Below are positions 47,294 to 62,821 of a stretch of 64,000 bases of DNA, in pieces. Position 1 is the first letter of the stretch. Each line of letters opens with the position of its first letter. Under the pieces are notes generated by a model. The model ran no database searches, was not told the origin of the DNA, and saw nothing but the letters and a program-made list of their open reading frames with translations. The stretch is from Cyanobacteriota bacterium (GTDB taxonomy: Bacteria; Cyanobacteriota; Cyanobacteriia; Cyanobacteriales; Nostocaceae), in assembly GCA_046045965.1 (NCBI GenBank), contig JBJOKS010000025.1, forward strand, positions 1-64,000. Direction: 5' to 3'. Both the position numbers and the translations under genes were made by a program.

Positions 47294-47788
47294 CTATAGC
47301 ATTTCAAACTTTAATTGATCAGTTTTGAGAAAATCATGGGTGAAATGATCGACCACATTTGTATCACTTAATTCCAAGTTATAAAAATCGACAAATTCAT
47401 GGTTAAAATATGGTCCAGCGTGCCAAGTTCCTACTTCTAATTTAATAAAACAATTTCCGGGAATGCGAAAAGCAGCAAGTTCTGCTAATACAGGTTCATT
47501 AACGTCGTTGTTAGGTGGACAAACTGCCATCAACCAATCTTTACCTTCTAAAGAACCTAAACATTGAGTACATTGGATATGACGAGTAATTTTATGAAAC
47601 TGCGTTCCTTTGTTGTGTAAACGCATAATATAAAAACGGGGGATACCATTTTGTAAATTTAATTGTGCATCTTCAGAATCAAAAGATTTTCCATCTTTAC
47701 TAGCAAATATTAGCTGTCCATAAGGCTGAAAATTTTCTGGTGTGATCAATTCTGCTTTTAGCTGTTTTAATGTCTGGGATGTATTCAT
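47294..47788 (-). CDS. allA: Ureidoglycolate lyase/hydrolase family protein
   Basis: ITPENFQPYG, TRH..CTQ and GTWHAGP cupin motifs. Confidence 0.8.
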   Translation of the reverse strand: MNTSQTLKQLKAELITPENFQPYGQLIFASKDGKSFDSEDAQLNLQNGIPRFYIMRLHNKGTQFHKITRHIQCTQCLGSLEGKDWLMAVCPPNNDVNEPVLAELAAFRIPGNCFIKLEVGTWHAGPYFNHEFVDFYNLELSDTNVVDHFTHDFLKTDQLKFEML

Positions 47789-48025: not shown

Positions 48026-49087
48026 ATGATATCCAACTTAAATCGGCGTAAATTTATTTGGTATAGTTCTGCTACATTAGGTAATAGCTTACTGTTGAAA
48101 GCTTGCACTAATAACCCTACTTATAATCCAACTCCAACCTCAACAGCAACGAGTAATAATGAAGTATTGAAAATAGCGATCACACTTCCGGGAATTATTA
48201 CAGATCAAGCTTGGAATCAATCGGGTTATGAAGGTGTTAATTTAGCAAAACAAAAACTGGGTGCTGAAGTTGCTTATGTGGAAAATGTCACTCAAGCAGA
48301 TCAAGCAGAAGTATTAACAGATTTTGCCCGTAAAGGATATAATGTAGTGTTTGCTCACGGTGGACAATTTGATGCAGCAGTAGAACAAGTTGCTACACAA
48401 TTTCCTAATACTTTCTTTGTCGCTGTTAACGGTTCTATCAAAGGTGATAATATTGCTGCTTTGCGAATAGATCACCTGCAAGCTAGTTATTTGTGTGGAA
48501 TTATTGGTGCTTCTGTAACTAAATCTAACAAATTAGCTTACATCGCTGGACAAGAATTTGAAGCCACTCAACAAGAATTACGAGGATTTGAATTAGGTGC
48601 AAAATCTGTGAATCCAAATATTAAAATTACTTCTACTTTTACAGGTGATTGGAGTGATGTTGCTAAGGGTAAAGAAGCTGCTTTAGCTTTAATTTCTGCG
48701 GGAAATGATGTAATTTTTCAATGGTTAGATACAGCCTCAGCAGCAGTATTACAAACAGCAAATGATAAAGGAGTTTATGCTTTTGGGAATACTAAAGATC
48801 AGTTAGATGTTGCGCCGAAAGCAGTTTTAACTAGTGCGGTTAAACGGTTAGATTTAGCTATTACTTATTTAGCCGAATTAGCTCAACAAAAACAGTTAAA
48901 AGGAGAAATTTATACTATTGGTTTTGAAAGACCTGATATATTATATTTAGGTAAATTTGGGGAAGTTGTTCCAGAATCACTGGAAGAAAAAGCTATGGTG
49001 ATAAAACAGGAAATTATCGATCAGAAAATTACCTTTTTACCATGTAAGGAAGGAGGTAAAAATACCCGCTGTGTGCAGAAACTATAA
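48026..49087 (+). CDS. BMP-family (purine nucleoside-type) substrate-binding lipoprotein with a Tat signal
   Basis: NRRKF twin-arginine signal, lipobox LKAC, and DQAWNQSGYEG and GFELGAKSVNP motifs. Confidence 0.88.
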   Translation: MISNLNRRKFIWYSSATLGNSLLLKACTNNPTYNPTPTSTATSNNEVLKIAITLPGIITDQAWNQSGYEGVNLAKQKLGAEVAYVENVTQADQAEVLTDFARKGYNVVFAHGGQFDAAVEQVATQFPNTFFVAVNGSIKGDNIAALRIDHLQASYLCGIIGASVTKSNKLAYIAGQEFEATQQELRGFELGAKSVNPNIKITSTFTGDWSDVAKGKEAALALISAGNDVIFQWLDTASAAVLQTANDKGVYAFGNTKDQLDVAPKAVLTSAVKRLDLAITYLAELAQQKQLKGEIYTIGFERPDILYLGKFGEVVPESLEEKAMVIKQEIIDQKITFLPCKEGGKNTRCVQKL

Positions 49088-49394: not shown

Positions 49395-50888
49395 ATGAAC
49401 ATATTTACATTATTTACCCAAGAAAACAATCATTCAGCCTTAATAACTCCTGATGGTGCTATCATTAACTATCAGCAGTTACGGGAAAATATCACTAAAT
49501 TAGTCTCTCAACTCCACAGTTTTGGCTTAAAAAAAGGAGACAGAATAGCCATATCTATGAATAATGGTACACCAATGGCAATCACATTTTTAGCATCGGC
49601 TTTGTGTGGAACTGCTGCACCATTAAACCCTAAATATAAACAAGACGAATTTAGTTTTTATTATCAAGATACCCAAGCTAAAGCATTAATTACATTACCC
49701 GGAACTTCAGAAGCAGCAATAGCAGCAACACCTGAGATGATGTTAATTAATGCCAATATTAATCATGATGGAACTTTAAACTTTGAATTAGTGAAATCAA
49801 CATCAGCAAAAACCATCAATACAGAACCGCCCGAAGCTGATGATATCGCTATGATTTTACATACTAGCGGTACTACCAGTCGTCCTAAACGTGTACCTAT
49901 TCGTCATCGGAATTTAATCGCTTCTGCTAATAATATTATCGGTGCTTATTCCCTGACATCTGCTGATATTACACTTTGTTTAATGCCACTTTTTCACATT
50001 CATGGTTTGGTAGGATGTTTATTAGCAACTCTCGCATCAGGAGGAACTTTAATTTGTCCCAATGGGTTTAATGCTTTGGAATTTTGGAAACTGGTAGAAA
50101 CCTATAAACCTACTTGGTATTCTGCTGCTCCTACCATGCACCAAACAATTTTAGCACGGGCAATTCGTAACTTACAAATTGTCAAAAATAACCCCTTCCG
50201 TTTCATTCGTTCTAGTAGTGCATCTTTAGCACCAGTTATCATTGAACAAATGGAAAATACTTTAAATTCTCCTGTTTTAGAATCTTACAGTATGACGGAA
50301 GCAGCGCACTTAATGACAACAAACCCTTTACCACCAAAAACTCGTAAACCAGGAACTGTGGGTTATGGTTTTAATGTGGAAGTTGGTATTATGGATGAAG
50401 CTGGAAATTTACTATCTCAAGGAAGTTTAGGAGAAGTAGTTGTTAAAGGTGCAAACGTTATTGATGGTTATGAAAATAACCCCGATGCTAATGCAACAGC
50501 TTTTGTTAATAGTTGGTTTCGTACAGGAGATCAGGGAACAATTGATGAAGATGGATATTTGCGTTTAACGGGTAGAATTAAAGAATTAATTAACCGGGGT
50601 GGAGAAAAAATTTCACCTTTAGAAATTGACGATATTTTATTACGTCATCCTGCGGTTTCTGAAGCTTTAGCTTTTGCTGTACCTCATAAAAGTTTAGGTG
50701 AAGAAATTCATGCTGCTGTGGTTTTACAAGGTGAAATAACTGAAAAGGAACTGCAACAACATTGCTCAACTATGTTGGCTGATTTTAAAGTACCTAAACA
50801 AATTCATATTTTAGAAACTTTACCTCGTGGTGCGACGGGTAAATTACAACGTTTAGCGATGGCGAAATTATTGAATATTTCTGTCTGA
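49395..50888 (+). CDS. Acyl-CoA synthetase, oxalate-CoA ligase (AAE3/Pcs60)-like
   Basis: LHTSGTTSRPK, MPLFHIHGL, FIRSSSASL, YSMTEAAH and INRGGEKISP motifs. Confidence 0.85.
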   Translation: MNIFTLFTQENNHSALITPDGAIINYQQLRENITKLVSQLHSFGLKKGDRIAISMNNGTPMAITFLASALCGTAAPLNPKYKQDEFSFYYQDTQAKALITLPGTSEAAIAATPEMMLINANINHDGTLNFELVKSTSAKTINTEPPEADDIAMILHTSGTTSRPKRVPIRHRNLIASANNIIGAYSLTSADITLCLMPLFHIHGLVGCLLATLASGGTLICPNGFNALEFWKLVETYKPTWYSAAPTMHQTILARAIRNLQIVKNNPFRFIRSSSASLAPVIIEQMENTLNSPVLESYSMTEAAHLMTTNPLPPKTRKPGTVGYGFNVEVGIMDEAGNLLSQGSLGEVVVKGANVIDGYENNPDANATAFVNSWFRTGDQGTIDEDGYLRLTGRIKELINRGGEKISPLEIDDILLRHPAVSEALAFAVPHKSLGEEIHAAVVLQGEITEKELQQHCSTMLADFKVPKQIHILETLPRGATGKLQRLAMAKLLNISV

Positions 50889-50976
50889 TAGCGTAGCGTG
50901 GCGTAGCCATATCAGGATTTTCAGGATTGTGATTACAGGGACTGGCTGAGGTAAAATCTCAGCAGTAGTCATCTTG

Positions 50977-53700
50977 TTATTTGTTAGGAGATTTGAGATA
51001 ATTTGCATCAATTGAAACAAATTTACCATCCTGAATCTGCACAAGCACAGCTTCGCCCTGACGCTCTCTTTCTTGTGTAAACTGAAGTGGATAACCGGAT
51101 GTATCACTTTCGGAAAGTTTAACATTCTGTAATCCTTCTAATACCGTAGTTCGAGAAGGATCATTAGATAAAGCTTTAATCAAAGCCTGAGTAGCATCAT
51201 AGCTGGTGGCAGTACGCCAACTAATGCCTCCTCTCCAGAATTGCTCGGATTTTTTAGCAAAGTTTTTAGCTTGTGCAGTTTCTCTAAACCAAGGTACTGC
51301 AATTACTAAACCCTGTACATCCTTACCACCTCTGACTAAGGTTTCATTGTTATAAAGAGTATGTCCAGCTAACATTTTTAATTCTTTAATTTGCCCAGGT
51401 TGAGGATTATTCTTAAGTTTTTCGTTTCTACTTTTGATCTCTTTAGCAATGTTAATGGCAATATCTGTGTTTTGCGTATCTGGAAATAAAAGTGCTGCTT
51501 CTGCTTTATCCGAATATACACTTTTAGCAACTTCTTTTTCCGCATCAAATGTATTAGCAGTTAAATCAATTAGTGGTTTACGAACTACCTCACCTCCTAG
51601 TTTTTCAAAATAGTTTGTAAATGTCTCTCTGACGCTGTTACTATATGGGCTATTAGGATTAGCAAAAACTACTGCTTTTTTTAATTGCAGATTCTTATAA
51701 GTATAATCAGCTAATTTTTGACCAGCAATTTCATCTGAATAAACTGTTCTAAAGAAAACAGGGTTTTTTAGTAAAATGCTAGTGCTAGTGGGAGAAATTA
51801 CTGCTAATCCTGCTTTTTCATATTCTGGTAGTGCTGCTTTTGTAGCATCACTGGAATTATGTCCAATTACTCCCAGTATTGAAGGATCTTTAACTAATTC
51901 CTCAGCTACTTGTTTTGCTTTTTCTGATTCGTTACTATCATTAGCAATGATTATTTCTAATAATCTACCATTGAAGCCTTTATTTTTATTGAATTCATTT
52001 TGTGCTTGTGCTACACCACGTAATATTTCTTGAGCATTATTGATGTTATTAACTGGCACAACCACTGCTAAAGTAAAAGGAGAACCCTGTTGACGAGCTA
52101 GACTATTGTTGTAGTAAATTAGCACTTCTGGATCATAGGGATTTGCTTTTACAGCTTGATTAAATAATTCATATGCTTGTGCGTAATTTCCCTTTTTAAT
52201 ATTTTCAATTCCCTGATCACGAGGGATATTAGTAATATTAGGGAAGAAAGTTTTATTACTACGACTAATATTAATATTCTGTTCTGTTGTACAAAAAATA
52301 CCTAATACCTTTTGTTCATTTGTTAAACAAGAGGTAGAACGATACAGAAAAGCAACCATAATAGCCAAAATAACTGCAACTATGGGTGCTATTTTGATTA
52401 GATTTAAAATAATCGGATTAAGTTTTGTTGAATTACTGTTGCTAGATTCATTCAATTCATAGGGAACATAACGAATATTATCCGTATTTTCTTCTGTATT
52501 TTCAGTTATGATATTTACTTGATATTGATATGATTGATTTGCTGTTTCGTCACTAGAATTTTTTTTTTGCTCAAACTCAAATTTATCTAATTCATTAATT
52601 TCTTCTCTTAGTGGGTGACGTTGTATGATCCAGCGACGTACTAATTCTATTTTTATTTTCTCCTCTATTTCATCTAAAAAACCATTATTTCTTAGAAGTT
52701 GCTTTGTTTCTATAATCAATTTATTATCTGTATCCGGTCTCAATCTTCTTATTAATTCGATATAATCTTCTGAATTTTCTTGAGCTTCTGCTATTGCTGC
52801 AAAAACCATTTTTTCTGGAATAGAAAATCCGTCCCAAAACCATGCTAAACCGGCTTCAGCCAATTCAATTGCTTTGCTGGTTATAGCTTCTACATCTTCA
52901 CTACTAACTTTCCATTGATTATTTTCTCGCGCTCTACCAAAAATACTAAAACATATTGCTTGGGTAAAATAGGGATGTCCTGCTGATAGATTAAAAATGG
53001 CTTTTATTGCATCTTTTTCATACTCAATGATATTTTCCGCTGGTTTAATAATTACATCTTTGGTACTGTTCTTGTCTAATAAACCAATTTCTTTAATAGG
53101 TACATCCCTAAATATCTTACTTATCCTTGAGTTATTTACTGATTTTTGTTCTATAAATACAATCAAAAATAATTTTCTATTAACTTTAATTGTCGCCAAC
53201 AAATATTTATAAACCTGTTCTAATAATAATTCTGAATCCTGATTATTTAGTAAGGCATCAAATTCATCAAGTAACAATACTAAATTTTTGTTTTCTAATG
53301 ATTGATATACTTGCGGTAAAAATTCATGGGAAAAAATTTCAGTATTTAATTCTAGCTCTGTAATTTCCGGTACTTTGATATTTTCATCATCCAAGGAGAG
53401 GTCACTAATTACTTCTTTAGCTAACTCTGCTAAAATTTTACTCAGCGAGTCTTGACTATAATATTCTAAATTAAATCTAACAAAAACAAACTTATTTAAA
53501 TCTGGAAGTTTATTAGGAATATTCCGAATGATAGATGACTTACCAATGCGTCGTTGACCATATAACAAGATGACTTGTTGACCTTGCTGGAGGTAATCAT
53601 TAATAGATAAAAATAGGCTTTCTCGCCCAAAAAAGAACTGTTGGTCTATTGGACGACCAATAATGTATGGATTCCTTTGAGGCTTGGAAGAAGTAATCAT
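50977..53700 (-). CDS. STAND-like ATPase, TM helix, TPR, type I periplasmic-binding domain (receptor A)
   Basis: NPYIIGRP, Walker A GQRRIGKS, Walker B LLLDEFD, GHP motif, TM IAPIVAVILAIMVAFL, and LivJ-like ILGVIGHNSS and VISPTST motifs. Confidence 0.88.
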   Translation of the reverse strand: MITSSKPQRNPYIIGRPIDQQFFFGRESLFLSINDYLQQGQQVILLYGQRRIGKSSIIRNIPNKLPDLNKFVFVRFNLEYYSQDSLSKILAELAKEVISDLSLDDENIKVPEITELELNTEIFSHEFLPQVYQSLENKNLVLLLDEFDALLNNQDSELLLEQVYKYLLATIKVNRKLFLIVFIEQKSVNNSRISKIFRDVPIKEIGLLDKNSTKDVIIKPAENIIEYEKDAIKAIFNLSAGHPYFTQAICFSIFGRARENNQWKVSSEDVEAITSKAIELAEAGLAWFWDGFSIPEKMVFAAIAEAQENSEDYIELIRRLRPDTDNKLIIETKQLLRNNGFLDEIEEKIKIELVRRWIIQRHPLREEINELDKFEFEQKKNSSDETANQSYQYQVNIITENTEENTDNIRYVPYELNESSNSNSTKLNPIILNLIKIAPIVAVILAIMVAFLYRSTSCLTNEQKVLGIFCTTEQNINISRSNKTFFPNITNIPRDQGIENIKKGNYAQAYELFNQAVKANPYDPEVLIYYNNSLARQQGSPFTLAVVVPVNNINNAQEILRGVAQAQNEFNKNKGFNGRLLEIIIANDSNESEKAKQVAEELVKDPSILGVIGHNSSDATKAALPEYEKAGLAVISPTSTSILLKNPVFFRTVYSDEIAGQKLADYTYKNLQLKKAVVFANPNSPYSNSVRETFTNYFEKLGGEVVRKPLIDLTANTFDAEKEVAKSVYSDKAEAALLFPDTQNTDIAINIAKEIKSRNEKLKNNPQPGQIKELKMLAGHTLYNNETLVRGGKDVQGLVIAVPWFRETAQAKNFAKKSEQFWRGGISWRTATSYDATQALIKALSNDPSRTTVLEGLQNVKLSESDTSGYPLQFTQERERQGEAVLVQIQDGKFVSIDANYLKSPNK

Positions 53701-53775
53701 TTCTTGATCATAACTCTAAAAGGGTAATCTCAAGCGTCAATTTTCACTTTTCGTAAAATTTTGTAAAATTCATAT

Positions 53776-56700
53776 TTAGTTGCTCAACTCAACAAACTGA
53801 CCTCCCTTAACCTCTAAAAGAATTGACTTGCCTTGACGCTCTCTTTCTTGTGTAAACTGGAGTGGATAACCGGATGTATCACTTTCGGAAAGTTTCACAT
53901 TCTGTAATCCTTCCAATACTGTAGTCCGTGAAATATTGTTAGATAAGGTTTTAATCAAAGCCTGAGTAGCATCATAGCTGGTGGCAGTACGCCAACTAAT
54001 ACCTCCTCCCCAAAATTCCTCTGATTTTTTGGCAAATTTTTTAGTTTGTGAAGTTTCTCGAAACCAAGGTACTTCAATGACTAACCCATCCAGAAAGTTA
54101 CCCCCTTTAACTAAAGTTTCATTGTTATAAAGAGTATGCACCCCCAAAATTTTTAATTCTTTGATTTGCCCAGGTTGAAGATTATTCTTAAGTTTTTCGT
54201 TCCTAATGGTAATCTCTTTAGCAATTTTAATGGCAACATTAGTATGCTGTGTATCTGGAAACAACATAGCTACTTCTGCTTTATCTGTATATACACTTTT
54301 AGCAACTTCTTTTTCCGCATCAAATTTATCAGCAGTTAAATCAATTAGTGGTTTACGAACTACCTCACCTCCTAGTTTTTCAAAATGGTTTGTAAATGTC
54401 TCTCTGACGCTGTTACTATATGGGCTATTGGGATTAGCAAAAACTATTGCTTTTTTTAATTGCAGATTCTTATAAGTATATTCTGCTAATTTTTGACCAG
54501 CAATTTCATCTGAATAAACCGCTCTAAAGAAAACTGGTTTGTCTAATAAAATACTCGTGCTGGTAGGAGAAATTACTGCTAATCCTGCTTTTTCATATTC
54601 TGGTAGTGCAGCTTTGGTAGCCTCGCTGGAGTTATGTCCAATTACTCCCAGTATTGAAGGATCTTTAACTAATTCCTCAGCTACTTGTTTTGCTTTGTTT
54701 GGTTCGTTACTATCATTAGCAATGACTATTTCTAATAATCTACCATTGAAGCCGTTATTTTTATTGAATTCATTTTGTGCTTGTGCTATACCACGTAACA
54801 TTTCTTGAGCATTAGTTGTGTTTTTGTCTGCTGGTACAACTACCGCAAAGGTAAAAGGAGAACCTTGTTGACGAGCTAGACTATTGTTATAGTAAACTAG
54901 CACTTCTGGATCATTTTGATTTGCTTTTACAGCTTGTTTAAATAACTCCTCAGCTTGTTGATAATTACCTTTTTTGAAGGCTTGAACACCTTGATCACGA
55001 AACTTATTGCTAATGTTAGGAAAAATGGTTTTATCGCCCCGACTAATTCTACTATTATCTGCTACACACCAAAACCCAAATTCTTTTTTTTCTCCTACTG
55101 CACAAGGCTTGCTAAAGAATACTGTATAACCACCTAAACCCACAAGCAAAATTATAGCTAATCCTCCTAGAAATCCTTTAAATCTTAAAACCCAGTTCAG
55201 CCAGTTTGAAATTGTATTAGTATTTATATTGACAGATGCGACAGGTGCAGGAGGTGCAGGATTTTTATCTCCAACTTGAAGATTCGTTCTAGATTTCAGA
55301 GTTTGAATTTCTGCTAATTTTTGTTTAGATAATTTCCTGTTAGGATCAATTTGTAAAACAAGCGTAAACTGTTCTTCTGCCTTAGACCATTCTTTATTAA
55401 GTATTAATTCATGTCCATAATCTTCTCTTACTTCTATTAGAACATCTTTACTTTGTTCACTATCAATTTGGTAAGCTATTGTACCAATTTCTAATGCTTG
55501 CTCAAAATTTTGAGCTTGTGATTTTTGTTGAGCTAGTGTTAGTAAAGGTTGTACAATTAATTCTTGTTGATGATGATTAGTTTGAGAATAAAATTGATAA
55601 ACTCGATTATATAGATTACTAGCTTCATCTATATTTTGTATCTTCAAATATTCTTGAGCTAAAGAAATAACACATTTAAAATTATTAGGATTAAGTTTGA
55701 CGGCTTCTTTATAAAGAGACAATGCTGTTTCAGGCTGATTTTGGCGTAAATTCTCGGCTACTGATAATAACTGACTAACATCATCTTGGTTAATTTTCTC
55801 TAAGTTAGTAATTTCATCTTTTAAGCGATGTTCTTTCACTAACCAAAGACGGACAAACTCTATTTTCACTCGCCGTTTTGTCTCATCTAAAAAACCATAC
55901 TCAGATAATTGTTCGTATGCGTCTGTTAAATATTGTGTTATTACTATACCATAGTCATTGGTTAATAATGTTAGTGGTTCTTCAATAACAGATTGATTGT
56001 TTTTGTTTGCTATTTCTTGAGCCTCTGCTGCGGCTGCAATAATTATTCGCTGCTGCAAATTCAATCCATCCCAGAACCAAGCTAAACCAGCTTGTCCTGC
56101 TTTGATTGCTTGATTTATAACATTTTCAACATTTTGAGGAGTGATAGTCCGTAAATCATCATTGGGTTTTTTTTGATAGTTATTACGTACTTGACCATAA
56201 ATAGCGTGGCAGATAACTTGCGTAAAATAGGGGCTTCCAGCACATATATTGAAGATGGTATCTATGGTTTCTGGTTGATATGTTAAAATGCCTTCTGCGG
56301 GTTTAGTAATTAATTCTTCGGTTTTATCTTTCTGCAACAGAGTAATTTCTTTATAGAGTGCTGTCCGCAAAAAAGAAAGTAAGGTTTCTAATTTATTTAT
56401 ATTTCTCCCTACAACGGGAATAATAAATAATCTTTCCTCTTGAGCTAATAGTTGTAGAATATAATCACAAAATATTCTGGTTTCTGTCTCATCATCTCTT
56501 GCAATTAGAACATCAAACTCATCCCAAAGAAAAACTATTTTTTTATCACCTATGTTTTGATAAACTTGAGGTAGAAAATCACGAGAAAACCTTGGAAAAT
56601 CGGTTCTTATATTTTCTGCTAACTGTTCTAAAACATCAGGATCATCTTGGAAATCTAATATTTCTAAAATTTTATAGGCAATACTACATAAAATTTGAGA

Positions 56701-56958
56701 ATTAGATGAGTTTGATTGAGCTTGAAAATCAAACTCTATGAAAATAAATTCATCGCTACCAATCTTTTGAGGAATTAAATTAAGTATAGAAGATTTACCA
56801 ATACGTCTTTGTCCATACAATAAAGTTAATTGTGCATTTTGGAGAAGACTATCAGCAATCAGAGAAAATAAATCTTCCCGCCCAAAAAATTTGTCTGGGT
56901 CTCTAATCGGACGGCCTATAATGTAAGGATTAGGAGGTAGATTTGGTATATTAGTCAT
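53776..56958 (-). CDS. STAND-like ATPase, TPR array, TM helix, TPR, type I periplasmic-binding domain (receptor B)
   Basis: GQRRIGKS, FLWDEFD and AGSP motifs, cytoplasmic TPRs, TM GFLGGLAIILLVGLGG, and the same LivJ-like module as receptor A. Confidence 0.88.
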   Translation of the reverse strand: MTNIPNLPPNPYIIGRPIRDPDKFFGREDLFSLIADSLLQNAQLTLLYGQRRIGKSSILNLIPQKIGSDEFIFIEFDFQAQSNSSNSQILCSIAYKILEILDFQDDPDVLEQLAENIRTDFPRFSRDFLPQVYQNIGDKKIVFLWDEFDVLIARDDETETRIFCDYILQLLAQEERLFIIPVVGRNINKLETLLSFLRTALYKEITLLQKDKTEELITKPAEGILTYQPETIDTIFNICAGSPYFTQVICHAIYGQVRNNYQKKPNDDLRTITPQNVENVINQAIKAGQAGLAWFWDGLNLQQRIIIAAAAEAQEIANKNNQSVIEEPLTLLTNDYGIVITQYLTDAYEQLSEYGFLDETKRRVKIEFVRLWLVKEHRLKDEITNLEKINQDDVSQLLSVAENLRQNQPETALSLYKEAVKLNPNNFKCVISLAQEYLKIQNIDEASNLYNRVYQFYSQTNHHQQELIVQPLLTLAQQKSQAQNFEQALEIGTIAYQIDSEQSKDVLIEVREDYGHELILNKEWSKAEEQFTLVLQIDPNRKLSKQKLAEIQTLKSRTNLQVGDKNPAPPAPVASVNINTNTISNWLNWVLRFKGFLGGLAIILLVGLGGYTVFFSKPCAVGEKKEFGFWCVADNSRISRGDKTIFPNISNKFRDQGVQAFKKGNYQQAEELFKQAVKANQNDPEVLVYYNNSLARQQGSPFTFAVVVPADKNTTNAQEMLRGIAQAQNEFNKNNGFNGRLLEIVIANDSNEPNKAKQVAEELVKDPSILGVIGHNSSEATKAALPEYEKAGLAVISPTSTSILLDKPVFFRAVYSDEIAGQKLAEYTYKNLQLKKAIVFANPNSPYSNSVRETFTNHFEKLGGEVVRKPLIDLTADKFDAEKEVAKSVYTDKAEVAMLFPDTQHTNVAIKIAKEITIRNEKLKNNLQPGQIKELKILGVHTLYNNETLVKGGNFLDGLVIEVPWFRETSQTKKFAKKSEEFWGGGISWRTATSYDATQALIKTLSNNISRTTVLEGLQNVKLSESDTSGYPLQFTQERERQGKSILLEVKGGQFVELSN

Positions 56959-57215
56959 AATTGTATATTGATTTTCTCATCTATTGAAAAGATTTTATCA
57001 ACGCCACATTAGGTTAACAATGTGTTATGTAAGATCCCATTAATAGGGAAGATTAGGAGAACTTCCCTATTCAGTCCAGTTGCTAGTTATTTAGTTGATG
57101 CTTGTAATGGATAATTTTCAGAAAAATTCCGTTGTTATCCCGTGAATCTTTTAATCCTAGACATCCTGATGAAAATACTTTACCCAACTAGCAACTTAGA
57201 TGATTAGGAATTTTA

Positions 57216-58472
57216 TTATGGCAAGAATGTTAATAGTTTCGGAATCCAATTTAACACGGTTTTGACTTTATCAGGATTCTGTGTTAACCAAGTTACGAAG
57301 TTTTTAACTTGATCCAATTGTTTATGACTAATGAGATTTAGAAATAATTGGTTCTCTGCAAAGAATTGTTCTGATGTATTTAATATTTCCTGTGTTGCCC
57401 TTTTTTTCATCAGTGGTGAAGTAAAGGAATACAACTTGACTGAATCTGTAATAGTAGAAGTAATTACACCTCTATCTTCTAATTTATTTAAAAGACGTTC
57501 ATGCTGAGTCATAATTCTTCCTATGCCTTTTAAATTATATTTTGTATCATTTATATGACCATCCAGATCCAGCAAAGCTATCAGCATCAATAAAAGCTGT
57601 TCTGTAGGATTACATCTTTGCCAAATTACCTCAAAAATCTGTCTAGTATCGGCTTCAAATCTCTGAGCAAATGATTCAGAATTAGCATCCTGACCTCGCT
57701 GCATTTCTCTATATATTAAAAGTCCACCAATTTGTACTAAACTAGGATGTCCACCTGTAATATTGATAATTTCACCCCGTAATGTTGGAGGTCTAACAAT
57801 ATTCAAGATTTGCACCAATTCGCTAGTATTAAATAGTTTCAGGGATTGAAATAAATAGTGATTGTACCAAGGAGAAGCATGAGGATTAAGTTGAGGTCCC
57901 AGGTCACTTAGGGGTTGCAGTGAGGTAACAATCATAGATAGATATTCACTTTCTTCTGCATGAACCGCCAAACTACGACATTCTGCCAAAAATGTTTCCA
58001 TTTCTGTTTCAGTGTATTGTTCGTTTGTTACCAAAGCTGCATCAAAGTCATCTACTAACAGTAATAAAAATTTACCATTATCACCTAATTTCCGTAATGC
58101 TTGGCGGATAATGCGACTTGTAGCTGGTTTTTCTAGTAAGGGTTGAATTTTAGCTTGTAATTGTGGTTCATTATCTAATTGATCATGTAGCAAATTTAAG
58201 ATTTCTTGCCAAAACCGAGCAGGTGTGAAGTCCCTAATATCTTGGCAGTAGAGTAGTACAACTGCAACTTCAGATGGATCTATGCCATGTTCCTTTAGTG
58301 CTTGTTTAGAAGCAAGTTTCCTTAAAAATGAGGTTTTACCCATCCCCGGACCTCCCCAAATGGCAAAATGGCTGCGGTTACAGATTTGGTCAAAGGCAAA
58401 GTTAATTTCTGATCTCCGTCCGACAAAATGTTCTGGGGGAACTGCTCTTCCGGGAAAAAAGGGATTAGACAT
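57216..58472 (-). CDS. Stand-alone STAND-like AAA ATPase; start may be 58499
   Basis: NPFFPG..FVGR, Walker A GGPGMGKT, Walker B LLLVDDFD, SPWYN and GGHP motifs. Confidence 0.85.
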   Translation of the reverse strand: MSNPFFPGRAVPPEHFVGRRSEINFAFDQICNRSHFAIWGGPGMGKTSFLRKLASKQALKEHGIDPSEVAVVLLYCQDIRDFTPARFWQEILNLLHDQLDNEPQLQAKIQPLLEKPATSRIIRQALRKLGDNGKFLLLLVDDFDAALVTNEQYTETEMETFLAECRSLAVHAEESEYLSMIVTSLQPLSDLGPQLNPHASPWYNHYLFQSLKLFNTSELVQILNIVRPPTLRGEIINITGGHPSLVQIGGLLIYREMQRGQDANSESFAQRFEADTRQIFEVIWQRCNPTEQLLLMLIALLDLDGHINDTKYNLKGIGRIMTQHERLLNKLEDRGVITSTITDSVKLYSFTSPLMKKRATQEILNTSEQFFAENQLFLNLISHKQLDQVKNFVTWLTQNPDKVKTVLNWIPKLLTFLP

Positions 58473-58826
58473 GGTAATTTTACTGAGTTTTTTAACCAAT
58501 CAAATTCTACTTGTGCATAAAGTATATTGATTCTCTGCACAGGGTTTTTACTGAATTGCTTTTACTTATCAAGATAATACATTAACAGTATATATTTAAT
58601 AGCATAATACTTATCTATAGGTTGCATCATATTACATAGATAATATTAATTTGGGCAAATGCTTTCTCTCTGTGGGTTCTACTATTATCTGACGGTAAAG
58701 CATTGTGAACAATTGTTTTGAATAAAGTTTCGATCCAGTTTTCTCAGAAGATGCTTTAAAATTCAAAAACAGCTTATTTTATTACAATTCAATTACAGTA
58801 AAATTTTATTCAAATTAATTCCTTTT

Positions 58827-59804
58827 ATGAAAATCTGTATTGTTGGTGCTGGTGCTATTGGTGGTTTGCTCGGTGCTAAGTTAAGTTTAGCAGGTGAAGA
58901 AGTAACTTTAATTGCTCGCGGTGAGCATTTACAAGCTATCCAAAAAAATGGACTGCGGTTAATATCTGCTGATGGTTCTGAATTCGTTGCTAACCCAGCT
59001 TTAGCTACCAGTGATATTACAGAAGTTTCTCCCCAAGATGTTCTAATTTTAGCTGTTAAAACTAATAGTGTAGAAGCGATCGCTCCCGTGCTTCCCCATC
59101 TCTATCATGACACAACAATGGTAGTTACAGCCCAAAATGGTGTTCCTTGGTGGTATTTCCGCAAACACGGGGGGGAGTACGAAGGGACAAACATCAAATC
59201 AGTTGATCCAGATGGTATAATTGAAAACTCTATTAATATTGATCGGGTAATTGGTTGTGTGGTTTATCCCGCTGCGGAAATAGTAGAACCTGGAGTAATT
59301 AAGCACATTGAAGGTGAAAGGTTTACCCTGGGAGAAATTGACGGTTCTAAAACTGAACGTATCCAATTATTATCCCAAACTTTAAAAAAAGCCGGATTTA
59401 AAGCCCCTGTACGCAATCAAATTAGAACAGAAATATGGGTAAAATTATGGGGTAATATTGCTTTTAATCCCATTAGTGCTTTAACTGGTGCAACGCTGGA
59501 AAGTATTGCTAAATATTCCCTTACCCGTGAACTAGCTAAAAATATGATGTTAGAAGCTCAAACAATAGCCGAAAAATTAGGTATCAATTTTGGCATTAGC
59601 TTAGAACAGCGAATTGATGGTGCTGAAAAAGTTGGCGCTCATAAAACCTCAATGTTACAAGATATCGAAGCGGGACGACCAACAGAAATAGAAGCGATTG
59701 TTGGTGCAGTGATAGAATTAGGTAAACTCACGCAAACACCCACACCTTATATTGATGCGGTTTACGCCAGTGTTAAATTATTGGAAGCTACCCATCAAAA
59801 TTAA
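58827..59804 (+). CDS. panE: Ketopantoate reductase family protein (PanE2/oxalyl-CoA reductase-like subfamily)
   Basis: GAGAIGG, QNGVPWWYF, WVKLWGNIAFNPISALT and HKTSMLQD motifs. Confidence 0.85.
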   Translation: MKICIVGAGAIGGLLGAKLSLAGEEVTLIARGEHLQAIQKNGLRLISADGSEFVANPALATSDITEVSPQDVLILAVKTNSVEAIAPVLPHLYHDTTMVVTAQNGVPWWYFRKHGGEYEGTNIKSVDPDGIIENSINIDRVIGCVVYPAAEIVEPGVIKHIEGERFTLGEIDGSKTERIQLLSQTLKKAGFKAPVRNQIRTEIWVKLWGNIAFNPISALTGATLESIAKYSLTRELAKNMMLEAQTIAEKLGINFGISLEQRIDGAEKVGAHKTSMLQDIEAGRPTEIEAIVGAVIELGKLTQTPTPYIDAVYASVKLLEATHQN

Positions 59805-59952
59805 CATCTTCAAAAATTGAGGTCATTAACTTTTTGTGTTCATAATTTTGTTTTCCACTGTTACGTAATTATTCAAATCATAAGTTTTAATTGACTGTCA
59901 ATATAGTTTGACTATGCTACTTTTTGAAGTGCGGAATGTGGGATGAAAACTC

Positions 59953-61245
59953 ATGAAAATTATTGCTTACAGTTATAGTGATCCACTCTTGGAAACATCT
60001 CCTGATCAAGCTAGTTGGGGTTGGGAAGTAGATCGAATTTATCAGGACTGGGGAGAGCGATCGCAATTACAACAATTATTAAATGACTGTGAAACAGAAC
60101 CTGCAAATTATTTACTGATTCGTCGTTTAGAAGAATTGGGAGATACATTAGCACAAGTTAGCGATCGCCTCAACCAATTAGAAGCTATGGGGGTAATAGT
60201 TATTGCTACAGAACAAAAATATACCTCCGAAGCTGCTAACTTCCGCATTGAACTCCTAAACTTACTCCAAGAAATTCAACGTCAACAACGCAGTCGCCGC
60301 ATCCGTCAAGGACACGCTAAAAATCGTCTCGAAGCTTCACCACCACCAGGTAAAGTCCCCTATGGCTATCGCAAAAGTAAAGGAAAATATACTATTGATC
60401 GCAGTACATCGCCGATAGTCAAAGATTTTTTTGACAACTTTTTACTTTATGGTTCTTTACGTGGTTCAGTTCGTTATATAGCCAAAAAATACGCTAAAAA
60501 AATCTCTGTCACTACAGGAAGACGTTGGTTAACAAATCCCGTTTATCGTGGTGATACCGCTTATCAAAATGGGGACATTATTTCTGATACTCATCTAAGT
60601 ATTATTTCTAGGGAAGAAGCAGCGCAAGTTGACCGACTTTTACGCAGGAATAGCCGTTTACCATCTCGTACCGCTAGTGCGCCTCATTCTTTAGCTGGTT
60701 TGGTTGTTTGTCAACAGTGTCAGTCTCGGATGGTAGTCACTCGTGTTACTCAGCGTTATCAAAATCAAGAGTATTTATATTTACGCAATACAAATTGTCC
60801 CCAAAGTCCTAAATGTCGTGCTATTCCTTACCAAGATATTTTGGAAAAGACTATTGAAATTGTTTGTCGAGATTTACCTTTAGCAGTATCAGGAATGAAT
60901 TTTCCCCAACTGGATGCTATTAAAAATAGCTTAAATGAGAAAATTAGCAATCAACAAAATATTCTTGAACAATTACCAAATTTACTAGAAACTGGGGTTT
61001 TAGATCAAGAAACAGCAAAATTAAGGTCTTACAAACTCCGCACAGAAATTTCTCAACTTCAAGCTAAGTTAGCTATTCTCCCTCCTGTAAATTTACGTTC
61101 TGTGGCGGAAGCTGTTTCTATTCCCCAGTTTTGGTTAGATTTATCAGAAGTGGAACGACGATTTTATTTACGGGAATTCATTCGGAAAATAGATATCATA
61201 AGGAATGGTAAAGATTGGGATTTACAGGTAATTTTCATTTTTTGA
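59953..61245 (+). CDS. Large serine recombinase homolog with a degenerate catalytic domain
   Basis: GKVPYGY, WLTNPVYRG, HLSIIS, zinc ribbon CQQC..C..C and a coiled coil. The N-terminus lacks YxRxS and DRxxR. Confidence 0.85.
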   Translation: MKIIAYSYSDPLLETSPDQASWGWEVDRIYQDWGERSQLQQLLNDCETEPANYLLIRRLEELGDTLAQVSDRLNQLEAMGVIVIATEQKYTSEAANFRIELLNLLQEIQRQQRSRRIRQGHAKNRLEASPPPGKVPYGYRKSKGKYTIDRSTSPIVKDFFDNFLLYGSLRGSVRYIAKKYAKKISVTTGRRWLTNPVYRGDTAYQNGDIISDTHLSIISREEAAQVDRLLRRNSRLPSRTASAPHSLAGLVVCQQCQSRMVVTRVTQRYQNQEYLYLRNTNCPQSPKCRAIPYQDILEKTIEIVCRDLPLAVSGMNFPQLDAIKNSLNEKISNQQNILEQLPNLLETGVLDQETAKLRSYKLRTEISQLQAKLAILPPVNLRSVAEAVSIPQFWLDLSEVERRFYLREFIRKIDIIRNGKDWDLQVIFIF

Positions 61246-61294: not shown

Positions 61295-62821
61295 TTAATC
61301 TTCATCTCTACTTCTAGATGATTTTGTTGATTTACCAGCATTTCTAACATTCATGACTTTACTAAGTAAATCAAACCAAAAAGGCGCTCCCATTGCAATA
61401 GCCAAACCACTAATTAACCAACCACAAAACATGGTTAACAAACTGAAAACAGGCACGCCATTTATCTTAATCGGATTCCAGCCAATTTGATCTTGTAGGT
61501 TATCACTAGTCCAACCAATTGGTAAATTAATTTCTTCTAAAATCTGTTGAGTATCAAAATTTTGGAGGCTGGAAGGATCAGATTGTTTATCTATTGTTTG
61601 TTCTACTTTATAAACAATTGCTTCTCTCAACACTGTATCTTTAGATAATCGATCAATGATATGAAATGTATCAGCATTAGCACCAAAAGCTAAAGTAATA
61701 CCAATCAAAATTGCCACTCCTTTAGCATTTCGTTTGTAAACACCACCGGCTCGTTGCATAGAACTATCAAAACAGTCTTCAATTTCCCTGCGTAAGATTT
61801 TAATACCTTCCTCTGTGCTTTTAGCTTTGTATTGCGCTCGCTTGGCTATAGTTGCAATATTCCTTTTCATCCCATCTGGGAGACTATCAACTAATTCTCG
61901 AATAGTCTTATATGTGGGATTATCTCGGTCTTGTAGAGTGGTTTCGATTTCATTATAAACAGCTTGACTTGTATCCATTAATTCTACAATTTCGCCAATA
62001 TTAGGTTTTAAACCGCCGATGATTATTGCTTCTTCAATGCTGGGAAATATATGTTGATGGAAGGCTTGCAATCGTTTCCAGGTTTCTGTTAAAATCTTAT
62101 TTTCATTTTCTATATTCGCTTGAAAATTATCTATATATTTAGCCAAGCTATCTTTCATCCGACTAACACTGCTATCTATATCCAATTTGTTATTTCTAAA
62201 ATCAAAAACAATTTGTGAATATTCTAACTTGAGATTTTCAAAATCATCTTTGATATCCTTGGTAATCTGATTTGATAATTCAGTAACTTTGAGTTGTCTT
62301 AGTGACCTAGTTAAAATTGTTTCCACTTCTTGCAAGCGTTCATTTTTGAATTTTTCTAGCCTGACTTCTGTTAAACTATGGATTATTTTTGGTAGTTTTA
62401 ATTCCTCTAGAAGAGTTGTAGCAAAAGTATCAGTAGCAATATAGGAAGGCGCACTATTTTCCTGGTCAAACGTCTTCTCATTATATGAGCAGTTAGTTAT
62501 TGATTTTCGTATTGGACGACTGATATCAGCTATCATCCAAGTCAATCTTCTTGGTAATATAGAGAAAAAACCTTTAGCTTCTTGGTTAATACTTTTAATT
62601 AAAGGATTTCTATAAATATTATTGACGAGTTTAATTACATCCTTTGCCTCTGAATTTTTAACATCTCCAGCCAAGAAAATTTCAATGGATTTCTTTAAGT
62701 GTATAGCTCGCCATTGCAGAACTGTAGCAATTAGCTCTTGAATCTCTGATGCTAATAAACTTAAAATTAGGTAAATAAAAATTAAACCCAGGGCGACATC
62801 TAAGATAAAAGGTAGACGCAT
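61295..62821 (-). CDS. Conserved hypothetical membrane protein
   Basis: N-terminal TM (LDVALGLIFIYLILSLLAS), PSYI motif and C-terminal GWLISGLAIAMGAPFWFDLL. Confidence 0.8.
   Translation of the reverse strand: MRLPFILDVALGLIFIYLILSLLASEIQELIATVLQWRAIHLKKSIEIFLAGDVKNSEAKDVIKLVNNIYRNPLIKSINQEAKGFFSILPRRLTWMIADISRPIRKSITNCSYNEKTFDQENSAPSYIATDTFATTLLEELKLPKIIHSLTEVRLEKFKNERLQEVETILTRSLRQLKVTELSNQITKDIKDDFENLKLEYSQIVFDFRNNKLDIDSSVSRMKDSLAKYIDNFQANIENENKILTETWKRLQAFHQHIFPSIEEAIIIGGLKPNIGEIVELMDTSQAVYNEIETTLQDRDNPTYKTIRELVDSLPDGMKRNIATIAKRAQYKAKSTEEGIKILRREIEDCFDSSMQRAGGVYKRNAKGVAILIGITLAFGANADTFHIIDRLSKDTVLREAIVYKVEQTIDKQSDPSSLQNFDTQQILEEINLPIGWTSDNLQDQIGWNPIKINGVPVFSLLTMFCGWLISGLAIAMGAPFWFDLLSKVMNVRNAGKSTKSSRSRDED

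Follow-up and report, generated by a model that had tools for sequence, protein, structure and literature searches.

A three-gene STAND ATPase cassette with two transmembrane flytrap receptors in Nostocaceae

Genes, domains and insertion of the cassette

We analysed a 64,000-nucleotide stretch from a cyanobacterium of the family Nostocaceae (contig JBJOKS010000025.1 of assembly GCA_046045965.1, positions 1 to 64,000; hereafter the window), which holds an inserted cassette of three genes, designated A, B and C, whose products we place among the signal transduction ATPases having numerous domains (STAND). A preliminary description, made from the letters of the window, had proposed three co-oriented STAND-like ATPase genes here, and calling of open reading frames (ORFs) returned all three on the minus strand at the same coordinates (Table 1). 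Gene A may start at ATG 58472, giving 418 aa, the length under which it appears in the protein collection, or further upstream at TTG 58499, giving 427 aa. The NP[FY]..GR leader and the Walker A, Walker B and GxP motifs described for each protein were all recovered by motif reading and alignment, and a pattern scan across six-frame ORFs of the genome matched the leader in A, B and C only. The domain scan likewise agreed that B and C each carry one transmembrane (TM) helix, a cysteine pair, a tetratricopeptide repeat (TPR) and a LivJ-like domain: the single hydrophobic segment (Kyte-Doolittle (KD) score 2.09 in B, 2.78 in C) is followed downstream by a C-x11-C pair, a TPR and Peripla_BP_6, with E-values of 3e-29 and 3e-32, above the cut-off. 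A has no TM segment, its best hydrophobic window scoring KD 1.22. B has cytoplasmic TPRs between its nucleoside triphosphatase (NTPase) module and the TM helix, which C lacks here and often lacks across the family.

The related NTPase family at the N terminus of B and C is referred to below as N. The B and C ectodomains are 77% identical in protein and 86% in DNA, against 40% for their NTPases. No further close A or N was found in the genome outside the cassette. One additional ectodomain copy, cut by a contig end, was observed elsewhere in the genome (L146:4393-5676, at the end of contig C23 of G000); its nearest single-domain relatives are kinase fusions, at 64%.

Table 1 Features of the cassette, in window coordinates
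Feature	Position	Strand	Basis
Gene A: stand-alone MNS-like STAND NTPase, 418 aa (NTPase, helical domain, winged helix, C-terminal tail)	57216..58472	-	ORFs, domain scan, model (pLDDT 87.8), fold matches
Gene B: catalytically intact receptor, 1060 aa (N-type NTPase, TPRs, TM, ectodomain)	53776..56958	-	ORFs, domain scan, hydrophobicity, catalytic-residue tally
Gene C: second receptor, 907 aa (N-type NTPase without strand-4 Arg, Gln here; TM; near-copy of B ectodomain)	50977..53700	-	ORFs, domain scan, hydrophobicity, residue tally
B NTPase module (1-390): Walker A Lys, Walker B Asp-Glu, strand-4 Arg	55789..56958	-	Residue tally, complex model
Cytoplasmic TPRs of B (about 391-555), missing in C	55294..55788	-	Pfam TPR_19/TPR_14; alignment
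B transmembrane helix (596-614)	55117..55173	-	Hydrophobicity; family charge bias
B ectodomain: Cys619/Cys631 hairpin, TPR-like helices (652-698), type I periplasmic-binding (LivJ/Venus-flytrap) domain (700-1060)	53779..55113	-	Domain scan, model, fold search
C transmembrane helix (434-452)	52345..52401	-	Hydrophobicity
C ectodomain: Cys458/Cys470, TPR, periplasmic-binding domain, 77% identical to that of B	50980..52338	-	Domain scan, identity
A Arg166: invariant; modelled interface with B nucleotide site; candidate trans-acting arginine (putative role)	57975..57977	-	107/107 A domains; interface list
A C-terminal tail (377-418): amphipathic helices, rich in Trp and basic overall; possible membrane-acting element	57219..57344	-	Model, tail statistics
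Inserted cassette, full extent	50879..58825		Flanking acyl-CoA ligase and ketopantoate reductase genes adjacent in same-genus G001 and G002

The acyl-CoA ligase (49395-50888) and ketopantoate reductase (58827-59804) genes on either side are adjacent or overlapping in G001 and G002 and split here, so that 50879-58825 represents an insertion; the cassette is missing from G003 too. In G200 and G162 it lies between ftsH and a short gene beside gltX, which are adjacent in G001. Judged from gene order, the cassette moves between sites, and its presence is patchy, in about a quarter to a third of the sampled family genomes. We rejected a tie to the flanking ligase and reductase genes, since the cassette interrupts the pair.

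The gap between A and B is 257 nt here, against a family median of 32. Among 43 non-redundant intact A-B-C triplets, the A-B gap is at most 100 nt in 32 and the B-C gap in 31; such short gaps would fit an operon. The promoter and terminator scan performed at chance (35 sites vs 35.4 expected) and so gives no support for one. Two RNA runs contain part of the locus (shares 0.35 and 0.19) and are not counted as evidence either.

STAND class and roles of the three NTPases

A and N form distinct families that are distant homologues (hhalign 98.7%, 18% identity). While no solved structure matched A by sequence, its AlphaFold model (predicted local distance difference test, pLDDT, 87.8) was best matched by 2QEN (Z 22.0, root-mean-square deviation (rmsd) 3.9, 314 aligned), then by 2FNA (Z 20.3, rmsd 4.5, 309 aligned), an archaeal pair that ranked top in both fold searches with A and to which N is also weakly nearest by sequence (E 0.04-0.05). 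Plant resistosomes (Z 17.5 and 17.1) and ORC/Cdc6 (Z 15-16.5) came next; residues 3-361 of the model align with 2QEN, and residues 13-377 with a resistosome. 2QEN is PAB2304 and 2FNA is SSO1545, both placed in the MNS clade of STANDs. The fold they share with A spans its NTPase, helical domain and winged helix, and they have in common the Gly-x-Arg-Arg-x-Gly-Lys Walker A of N; they differ in being soluble and of one module (13-17% identity), and lack a tail, TM helix and ectodomain. The Arg of the hhGR leader is invariant in B (43/43) and C (43/43) and kept in 98% of A, and the Pro of GxP is invariant in A and N. Leader, Walker motifs, GxP and fold matches together put A and N, on sequence and modelling grounds, in the STAND class near the MNS clade, within the class to which the preliminary description had assigned them. 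The STAND motif definitions are said to come from Leipe et al. (2004), and the MNS clade reportedly includes the Npun2340/2341 family.

Profile matches were sparser. C passes Pfam ATPase_2. For nSTAND1 (PF20703), B scores 30.6 bits against a cut-off of 27.1, with only positions 12-215 of 379 covered, where clear members score 106-293 bits, and A and C fall below the cut-off. PF20702 (nSTAND2) matched none of the window proteins at E 0.01, and weak matches at E 0.001 were obtained for 8 of 19 N members and 1 of 22 A members.

Catalytic residues distinguish the three proteins. The Walker A Lys is present in all; Walker B reads Asp-Glu in B and C and Asp-Asp in A, as in most of the 107 A domains, of which just 3 have Asp-Glu. 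Since Asp-Asp is normal in some STANDs, A should not be called inactive. The strand-4 Arg is found in 42/43 B and 24/43 C (Gln here), and A has a shifted Arg in 84% of orthologs (Pro here). Across the triplets, 42 of 43 B proteins have the full set of Walker A Lys, Walker B Asp-Glu and strand-4 Arg, and 25 of 43 C proteins, that of the window included, have lost at least one. This frequent degeneration of C had not been anticipated in the preliminary description.

The two halves of the receptors also differ in their histories. In FastTree phylogenies, the B/C label changes 4 times on the NTPase tree (shuffled mean 28.9) and 26 times on the ectodomain tree (shuffled mean 28.8), and cherries uniting both paralogues of one locus number 12/32 for ectodomains and 1/27 for NTPases. 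By these trees, the B and C ectodomains undergo homogenisation within loci, whilst their NTPases stay distinct, a pattern expected for co-receptors of one ligand.

Hetero-contact between the ATPases, which had been suggested as a check, was addressed by two-chain complex modelling, and A was placed on the ATP site of B. The model of B(1-390) with A scored 0.66, the best of three controls 0.02; in a calibration on 157 solved complexes and 215 mismatched pairs, 116 and 2 respectively reached the 0.66 mark, a comparison that is rough here as our own alignments were used. Separate runs shared at least 89% of contacts, with partner pLDDT of at least 81. The B leader and its Walker A and B residues face an A helix bearing Arg166 and the SPWYNHY segment. 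Arg166 is invariant in 107 of 107 A domains, and no conserved Arg occupies its place in the N domains of the A-N alignment. We infer from this model, which lacks ATP, that Arg166 may reach the nucleotide of B.

The A and N pair, its cargo and its candidate input and output

We surveyed a class sample of 201 genomes drawn across the class and a family sample of 151 genomes, in both of which kin are not independent. A and N each occur in 19 of the 201, the identical 19, adjacent in all and with A upstream in 18. In the family sample, full-strength A is found in 41/151 genomes, all 41 with strong N, which is itself found in 45/151; these counts leave out five genomes with distant N matches only and one with a contig-end fragment of A. 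A further survey covered 77 loci of A, taken from the best 80 of 212 matches and hence biased to close relatives: N accompanies A in 70, an ectodomain is present in 53, at least two N-ectodomain receptors in 42 and an N-TPR-A fusion in 8, and of the 7 loci without N, 3 end at a contig edge. Near-full A representatives (50% clustering, n = 61) comprise 33 stand-alone proteins, 15 N..A fusions and 13 other fusions. All named genera among the listed A loci are, we assume, filamentous cyanobacteria; carriers include bloom-forming genera, and one distant A member is named from Anaerolineae.

Because A and N share the same 19 genomes, are always adjacent and are often fused, the conserved core is, by genome comparison, the A+N pair, with the ectodomain as one interchangeable cargo. 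Conservation of the three genes in order across loci was borne out. The preliminary description had foreseen neither that A and N make up the conserved unit, with an optional periplasmic domain, nor that the cassette moves between sites. Alternative cargo after N and its TPRs includes a Ser/Thr kinase, FGE lectin, Csx3, NACHT modules, another ATPase, a helical domain without assignment and A itself; cytoplasmic-cargo N domains are intact in 27 of 28, a class that includes a few contig-cut receptors.

Several variants were observed in passing. In L123:11348-14834 an N-type NTPase with inserted Csx3 and TPRs precedes a caspase-GUN4 gene, and in L063:14467-19101 and L071:14333-18859 two tandem N domains stand ahead of TM and ectodomain, downstream of an N-TPR-A fusion. 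Fusion partners of A-type domains further include an AAA_35 module, a nucleotide cyclase, a kinase, and a kinase together with a caspase (L090:155-4819; P0273, P0304, P0310). Loci L094, L096, L124, L130 and L132-L134, all of one family, pair A with an N-TPR protein of 640-670 aa whose terminal helical domain is unassigned; they occupy a stable position near trpS and seem to have been inherited vertically. L147-L150 hold a C-type NTPase and TM helix with intact Walker motifs, no A and no ectodomain. A is split into two ORFs in L035, L081, L098 and L102, and C is truncated after the TM helix in several other loci, reflecting either cassette decay or assembly errors.

The ectodomain model (pLDDT 93.6) adopts a type I periplasmic-binding fold whose nearest structure is 3TD9 (Z 40.1, rmsd 2.4, 335 aligned), and branched-chain amino acid binders are nearest overall. 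Applying what we take to be the LivJ pocket numbering (Ser79, Thr102, Tyr150), the equivalent of Ser79 is Ser in 78 of 86 ectodomains, that of Thr102 is Thr or Ser in 72 and that of Tyr150 is Tyr in 74; retention of these pocket positions hints at an amino-acid-like ligand. Among 99 distinct receptors, a single TM segment (KD 1.6 or more, between N and ectodomain) is present in 97, the Cys pair lies just past it in 96, and the N side has the more positive net charge in 75 and the less positive in 10, with 14 showing no difference. This charge bias, with the domain family, supports a topology with the NTPase inside and the flytrap outside, as the preliminary description had it. The ectodomain is modular, its relatives following kinases, CHAT proteases and caspase-nSTAND1-WD40 proteins. 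Those fused to STAND NTPases group in a clade of their own (86/86, support 1.0), and the Cys pair is restricted to them, being found in 0 of 111 kinase or CHAT receptors with a TM helix. In 14 close pairs, the ratio of nonsynonymous to synonymous substitution (dN/dS) was below 1 for all five domains (0.11-0.85; ectodomains 0.19-0.79), and no diversifying selection was seen on the ectodomain in these whole-domain averages.

In its AlphaFold model, A ends in about 42 residues of helices, and this tail is retained in stand-alone A. At least two Trp occur in 78 of 90 ortholog tails and the net charge is positive in 83 of 90. On the interfacial scale, the tail of the window's A is among the best 5% of the protein's 25-residue windows, and that of orthologs is in the best quarter in 73/90. 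The cassette contains no enzymatic effector, and the A tail is its sole candidate output, albeit a weak one. The view of A as a sensorless ATPase with an amphipathic tail holds as to the missing TM helix and ectodomain and the amphipathic character; the tail is not exceptional by hydrophobic moment, a marker that we tried and that failed to single it out.

Mechanism, alternatives and precedents

We tentatively propose that the cassette encodes a heteromeric STAND switch that sits at the inner membrane and is gated by a ligand, and taken as a whole chain through to membrane output we place this a little short of an even chance. B and C have the anatomy of single-pass receptors, with the NTPase probably inside and the Venus-flytrap probably in the periplasm. 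A small ligand, probably amino-acid-like, would close the flytraps and cluster B and C. The NTPase of B, perhaps restrained by its own TPRs, would then load ATP and dock A head to tail through the modelled contact, and Arg166 of A would complete the B ATP site, making A both activator and timer. C would serve as a co-receptor with a dispensable ATP site that tunes or caps the assembly. Least supported is the step in which the assembly would gather the Trp-rich, basic A tails at the membrane, leading to leak or depolarisation and to cell arrest or death within the filament. By analogy, a cassette this movable and patchy is like conflict systems.

To our knowledge, the bacterial STAND receptors tested so far sense phage proteins in the cytoplasm as single-gene homo-oligomers. 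If the proposed switch is correct, it would extend STAND receptors to outside-in sensing of a small molecule, and would split the work between a receptor that is active, a co-receptor that has degenerated and a helper, in the manner of plant sensor-helper pairs of nucleotide-binding leucine-rich-repeat receptors (NLRs). The cassette is present in bloom-forming genera, where filament cell death has few known triggers, and knowing the ligand would also shed light on the many kinase and caspase receptors of cyanobacteria with this ectodomain; both the soluble ectodomain and the A-B pair lend themselves to direct tests. A bolder version, which we consider doubtful, is a bacterial transmembrane 'receptor-resistosome': a flytrap, the ectodomain fold used by animal class C receptors, would bind an extracellular danger or neighbour metabolite and, from across the membrane, seed an ordered ring built of three different STAND ATPases (the active receptor, a co-receptor that is a pseudo-ATPase and a helper that donates an arginine); the tails of the helper would open the membrane so that one filament cell is sacrificed.

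Several observations weigh against the ligand-gated switch. At the modelled contact, Arg166 is outside the closest listed residue pairs of a model built without nucleotide, interface conservation is average (0.67 vs 0.65 in A, 0.63 vs 0.64 in B), and the score may reflect likeness to AAA+/ORC rings, whose head-to-tail interfaces are already solved; the window's A also carries Pro where 84% of orthologs have Arg187. As for the output, the tail falls in the best tenth of windows in just 41/90 orthologs on the interfacial scale, its hydrophobic moment is 0.50 vs 0.73 for internal helices, and a kinase replaces it in distant relatives of A. The composition of the cassette is not fixed, as four genomes of one genus (those of L147-L150) keep the C-type NTPase and TM helix without A, and the ectodomain, present in 5 of the 19 positive class-sample genomes and missing from 14, is optional, so that sensing could in truth lie with the TPRs; in nSTAND2 operons, effectors occupy the position that follows the TPRs. 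PADLOC run on A, B and C gave no defence-system match and one weak P-loop hit only. Hits among nearest neighbours (19/122 vs 5/80 controls, p 0.048) are weakly enriched and generic-looking (AAA, kinase, SNF2, reverse transcriptase, HEAT); given this, and controls that are shorter and not independent, we read these neighbourhoods as variable regions rather than defence islands.

The same outside-in assembly might instead serve non-lethal signalling, a rather unlikely reading in which the A-B-C scaffold would report an extracellular metabolite or neighbour signal to other proteins, in parallel to kinase receptors that share its ectodomain, the A tail acting only as an anchor. Purifying selection on the ectodomains, unlike antigen sensors, favours it, as do the Ser/Thr kinases that are the nearest other carriers of the ectodomain (also in the available part of PMC1262709), the 103 of 122 neighbours without a PADLOC hit, and our finding of no copies on plasmids, phages or viral contigs in PLSDB, INPHARED and IMG/VR. 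However, no conserved downstream partner gene is seen in the loci listed, the patchiness, relocation and frequent truncation would be unusual for a core pathway, and the FGE lectin, Csx3 and NACHT cargos are typical of conflict systems.

Alternatively, the direction may be reversed, with the cytoplasmic TPRs of B sensing a phage protein or damage and assembling with A as an Avs-like defence, and the TM-flytrap anchoring, localising or modulating the complex. This inside-out arrangement, which we judge unlikely, is suggested by the constancy of the A+N-TPR core in the 14 of 19 genomes without ectodomain, by the intact cytoplasmic-cargo N domains (27/28), by the position of TPRs after the winged helix, usual for a STAND sensor and matched in the nSTAND2 operon layout, and by the neighbour PADLOC enrichment noted above. 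Two ectodomain copies that are kept, homogenised and conserved in their pockets would nevertheless be needless for a mere anchor, C often has no TPRs, and PADLOC recognises nothing in the proteins past the weak P-loop hit.

Very improbable is a role other than a switch, as membrane-tethered solute-binding proteins for an unlinked ATP-binding cassette (ABC) permease or as a membrane-tethered ORC-like DNA-binding complex: the ectodomain has the fold of ABC substrate-binding proteins, after which databases name these proteins, ORC/Cdc6 rank next among the fold matches (Z 15-16.5), and both a BMP-family binding protein and an acyl-CoA ligase are encoded close by, but the cassette has no permease or ABC ATPase and its binding domain is C-terminal to the TM helix, in line with the earlier view that this is no transporter, the flanking metabolic genes are a pair that it interrupts, the winged-helix region of A has a median net charge of 0 (50 orthologs), and the A+N pair persists without the ectodomain.

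Among known systems, the available part of PMC8195603 (Kaur et al. 2021) describes nSTAND2 as a mobile, MNS-like two-STAND operon, for which a hetero-oligomer of an active and an eroded copy is predicted. As here, a gene for STAND and winged helix is followed by one for STAND, winged helix, TPRs and a variable domain. The systems differ in that the cargo-fused nSTAND2 copy is inactive, whereas the cargo-fused B is intact in 42 of 43; in that both nSTAND2 proteins have an arginine finger, whereas the invariant Arg is in A only; and in the cargo, HEPN or GT4 there and TM plus flytrap with a third gene here. Neither HEPN nor GT4 was found among Pfam hits of the window proteins or the scanned cargo variants (for some, among the best five hits only), and the examined part of the Figure 6 source data of PMC8195603 has no cyanobacterial row. 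On these comparisons, the cassette is an MNS-like sister of the nSTAND2 operon and not a member. The A+N pair may already be covered by the Npun2340/2341 family, which was compared by name only; in the portion of PMC8195603 available, that label falls on Aeromonas protein rows. Three A accessions were unmatched in part of the supplements of PMC13581612, a 589-clade STAND survey (bioRxiv 10.64898/2026.01.04.697583) whose other tables may classify these proteins.

For the ectodomain, parts of PMC1262709 and PMC2853523 note its modular use in Nostoc kinases and metacaspases. Cyanobacterial Ser/Thr kinase-, caspase- and CHAT-ANF_receptor fusions have an ectodomain of the same family (34% median identity), the same TM-then-ectodomain order and the same conserved Ser and Trp in the pocket; they differ from the cassette in their inside module, here a STAND NTPase, and the Cys pair and clade are peculiar to the STAND fusions. 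LivJ-type ABC importers share the type I periplasmic-binding fold, which here follows a TM helix at the C terminus, and no linked permease or ABC ATPase occurs in the cassette. The available part of PMC7159879 (Kaur et al. 2020) lists TM plus periplasmic-binding protein (PBP) among EACC1-caspase variants, and that of bioRxiv 10.1101/2025.11.14.688446 reports that EACC1 forms membrane pores and mentions transmembrane STANDs. The likeness is by analogy only, a constant 5' gene preceding a 3' gene with a constant module and a variable C terminus that can be TM+PBP; those systems are activated by proteolysis, and EACC1 has no homology to A.

Avs, bacterial NACHT proteins and plant sensor-helper NLRs resemble the cassette in having a STAND switch with TPRs and a sensor with a separate executor, resistosomes being the next fold matches of A. 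Here, by contrast, the NTPase begins within 10 residues of the start in A, B and C, leaving no room for an N-terminal effector domain, the candidate sensor is outside the membrane and the candidate executor helix is C-terminal. A NACHT protein with a predicted periplasmic lectin is described in part of PMC10907252; its sensor and NTPase differ from those of the cassette. In the literature searched, with subscription papers outside its coverage, we found no description of a STAND-TM-flytrap cassette. Precedents exist for the parts and for the two-STAND logic; their combination, the asymmetry among three proteins and the homogenisation of the ectodomains seem not to have been described.

Around the cassette, a short repeat at the left insertion junction (50876-50930), multicopy in related genomes, might have mediated integration. 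The adjacent serine recombinase gene (59953-61245) has a weak XisF-like match (138.7 bits, cut-off 375); we judged it unlikely to be the mobiliser, as it is present at unlinked places in 5 of 5 genomes checked. Between the reductase and recombinase genes lies a repeat of about 115 bp (59828-59948), with many copies in G200. The region 61295-62821 encodes a protein of 508 aa, hydrophobic at its ends, that matched nothing in Pfam or NCBIfam, and upstream are a ureidoglycolate-lyase-like gene (47294-47788) and the gene for the BMP-family binding protein (48026-49087).

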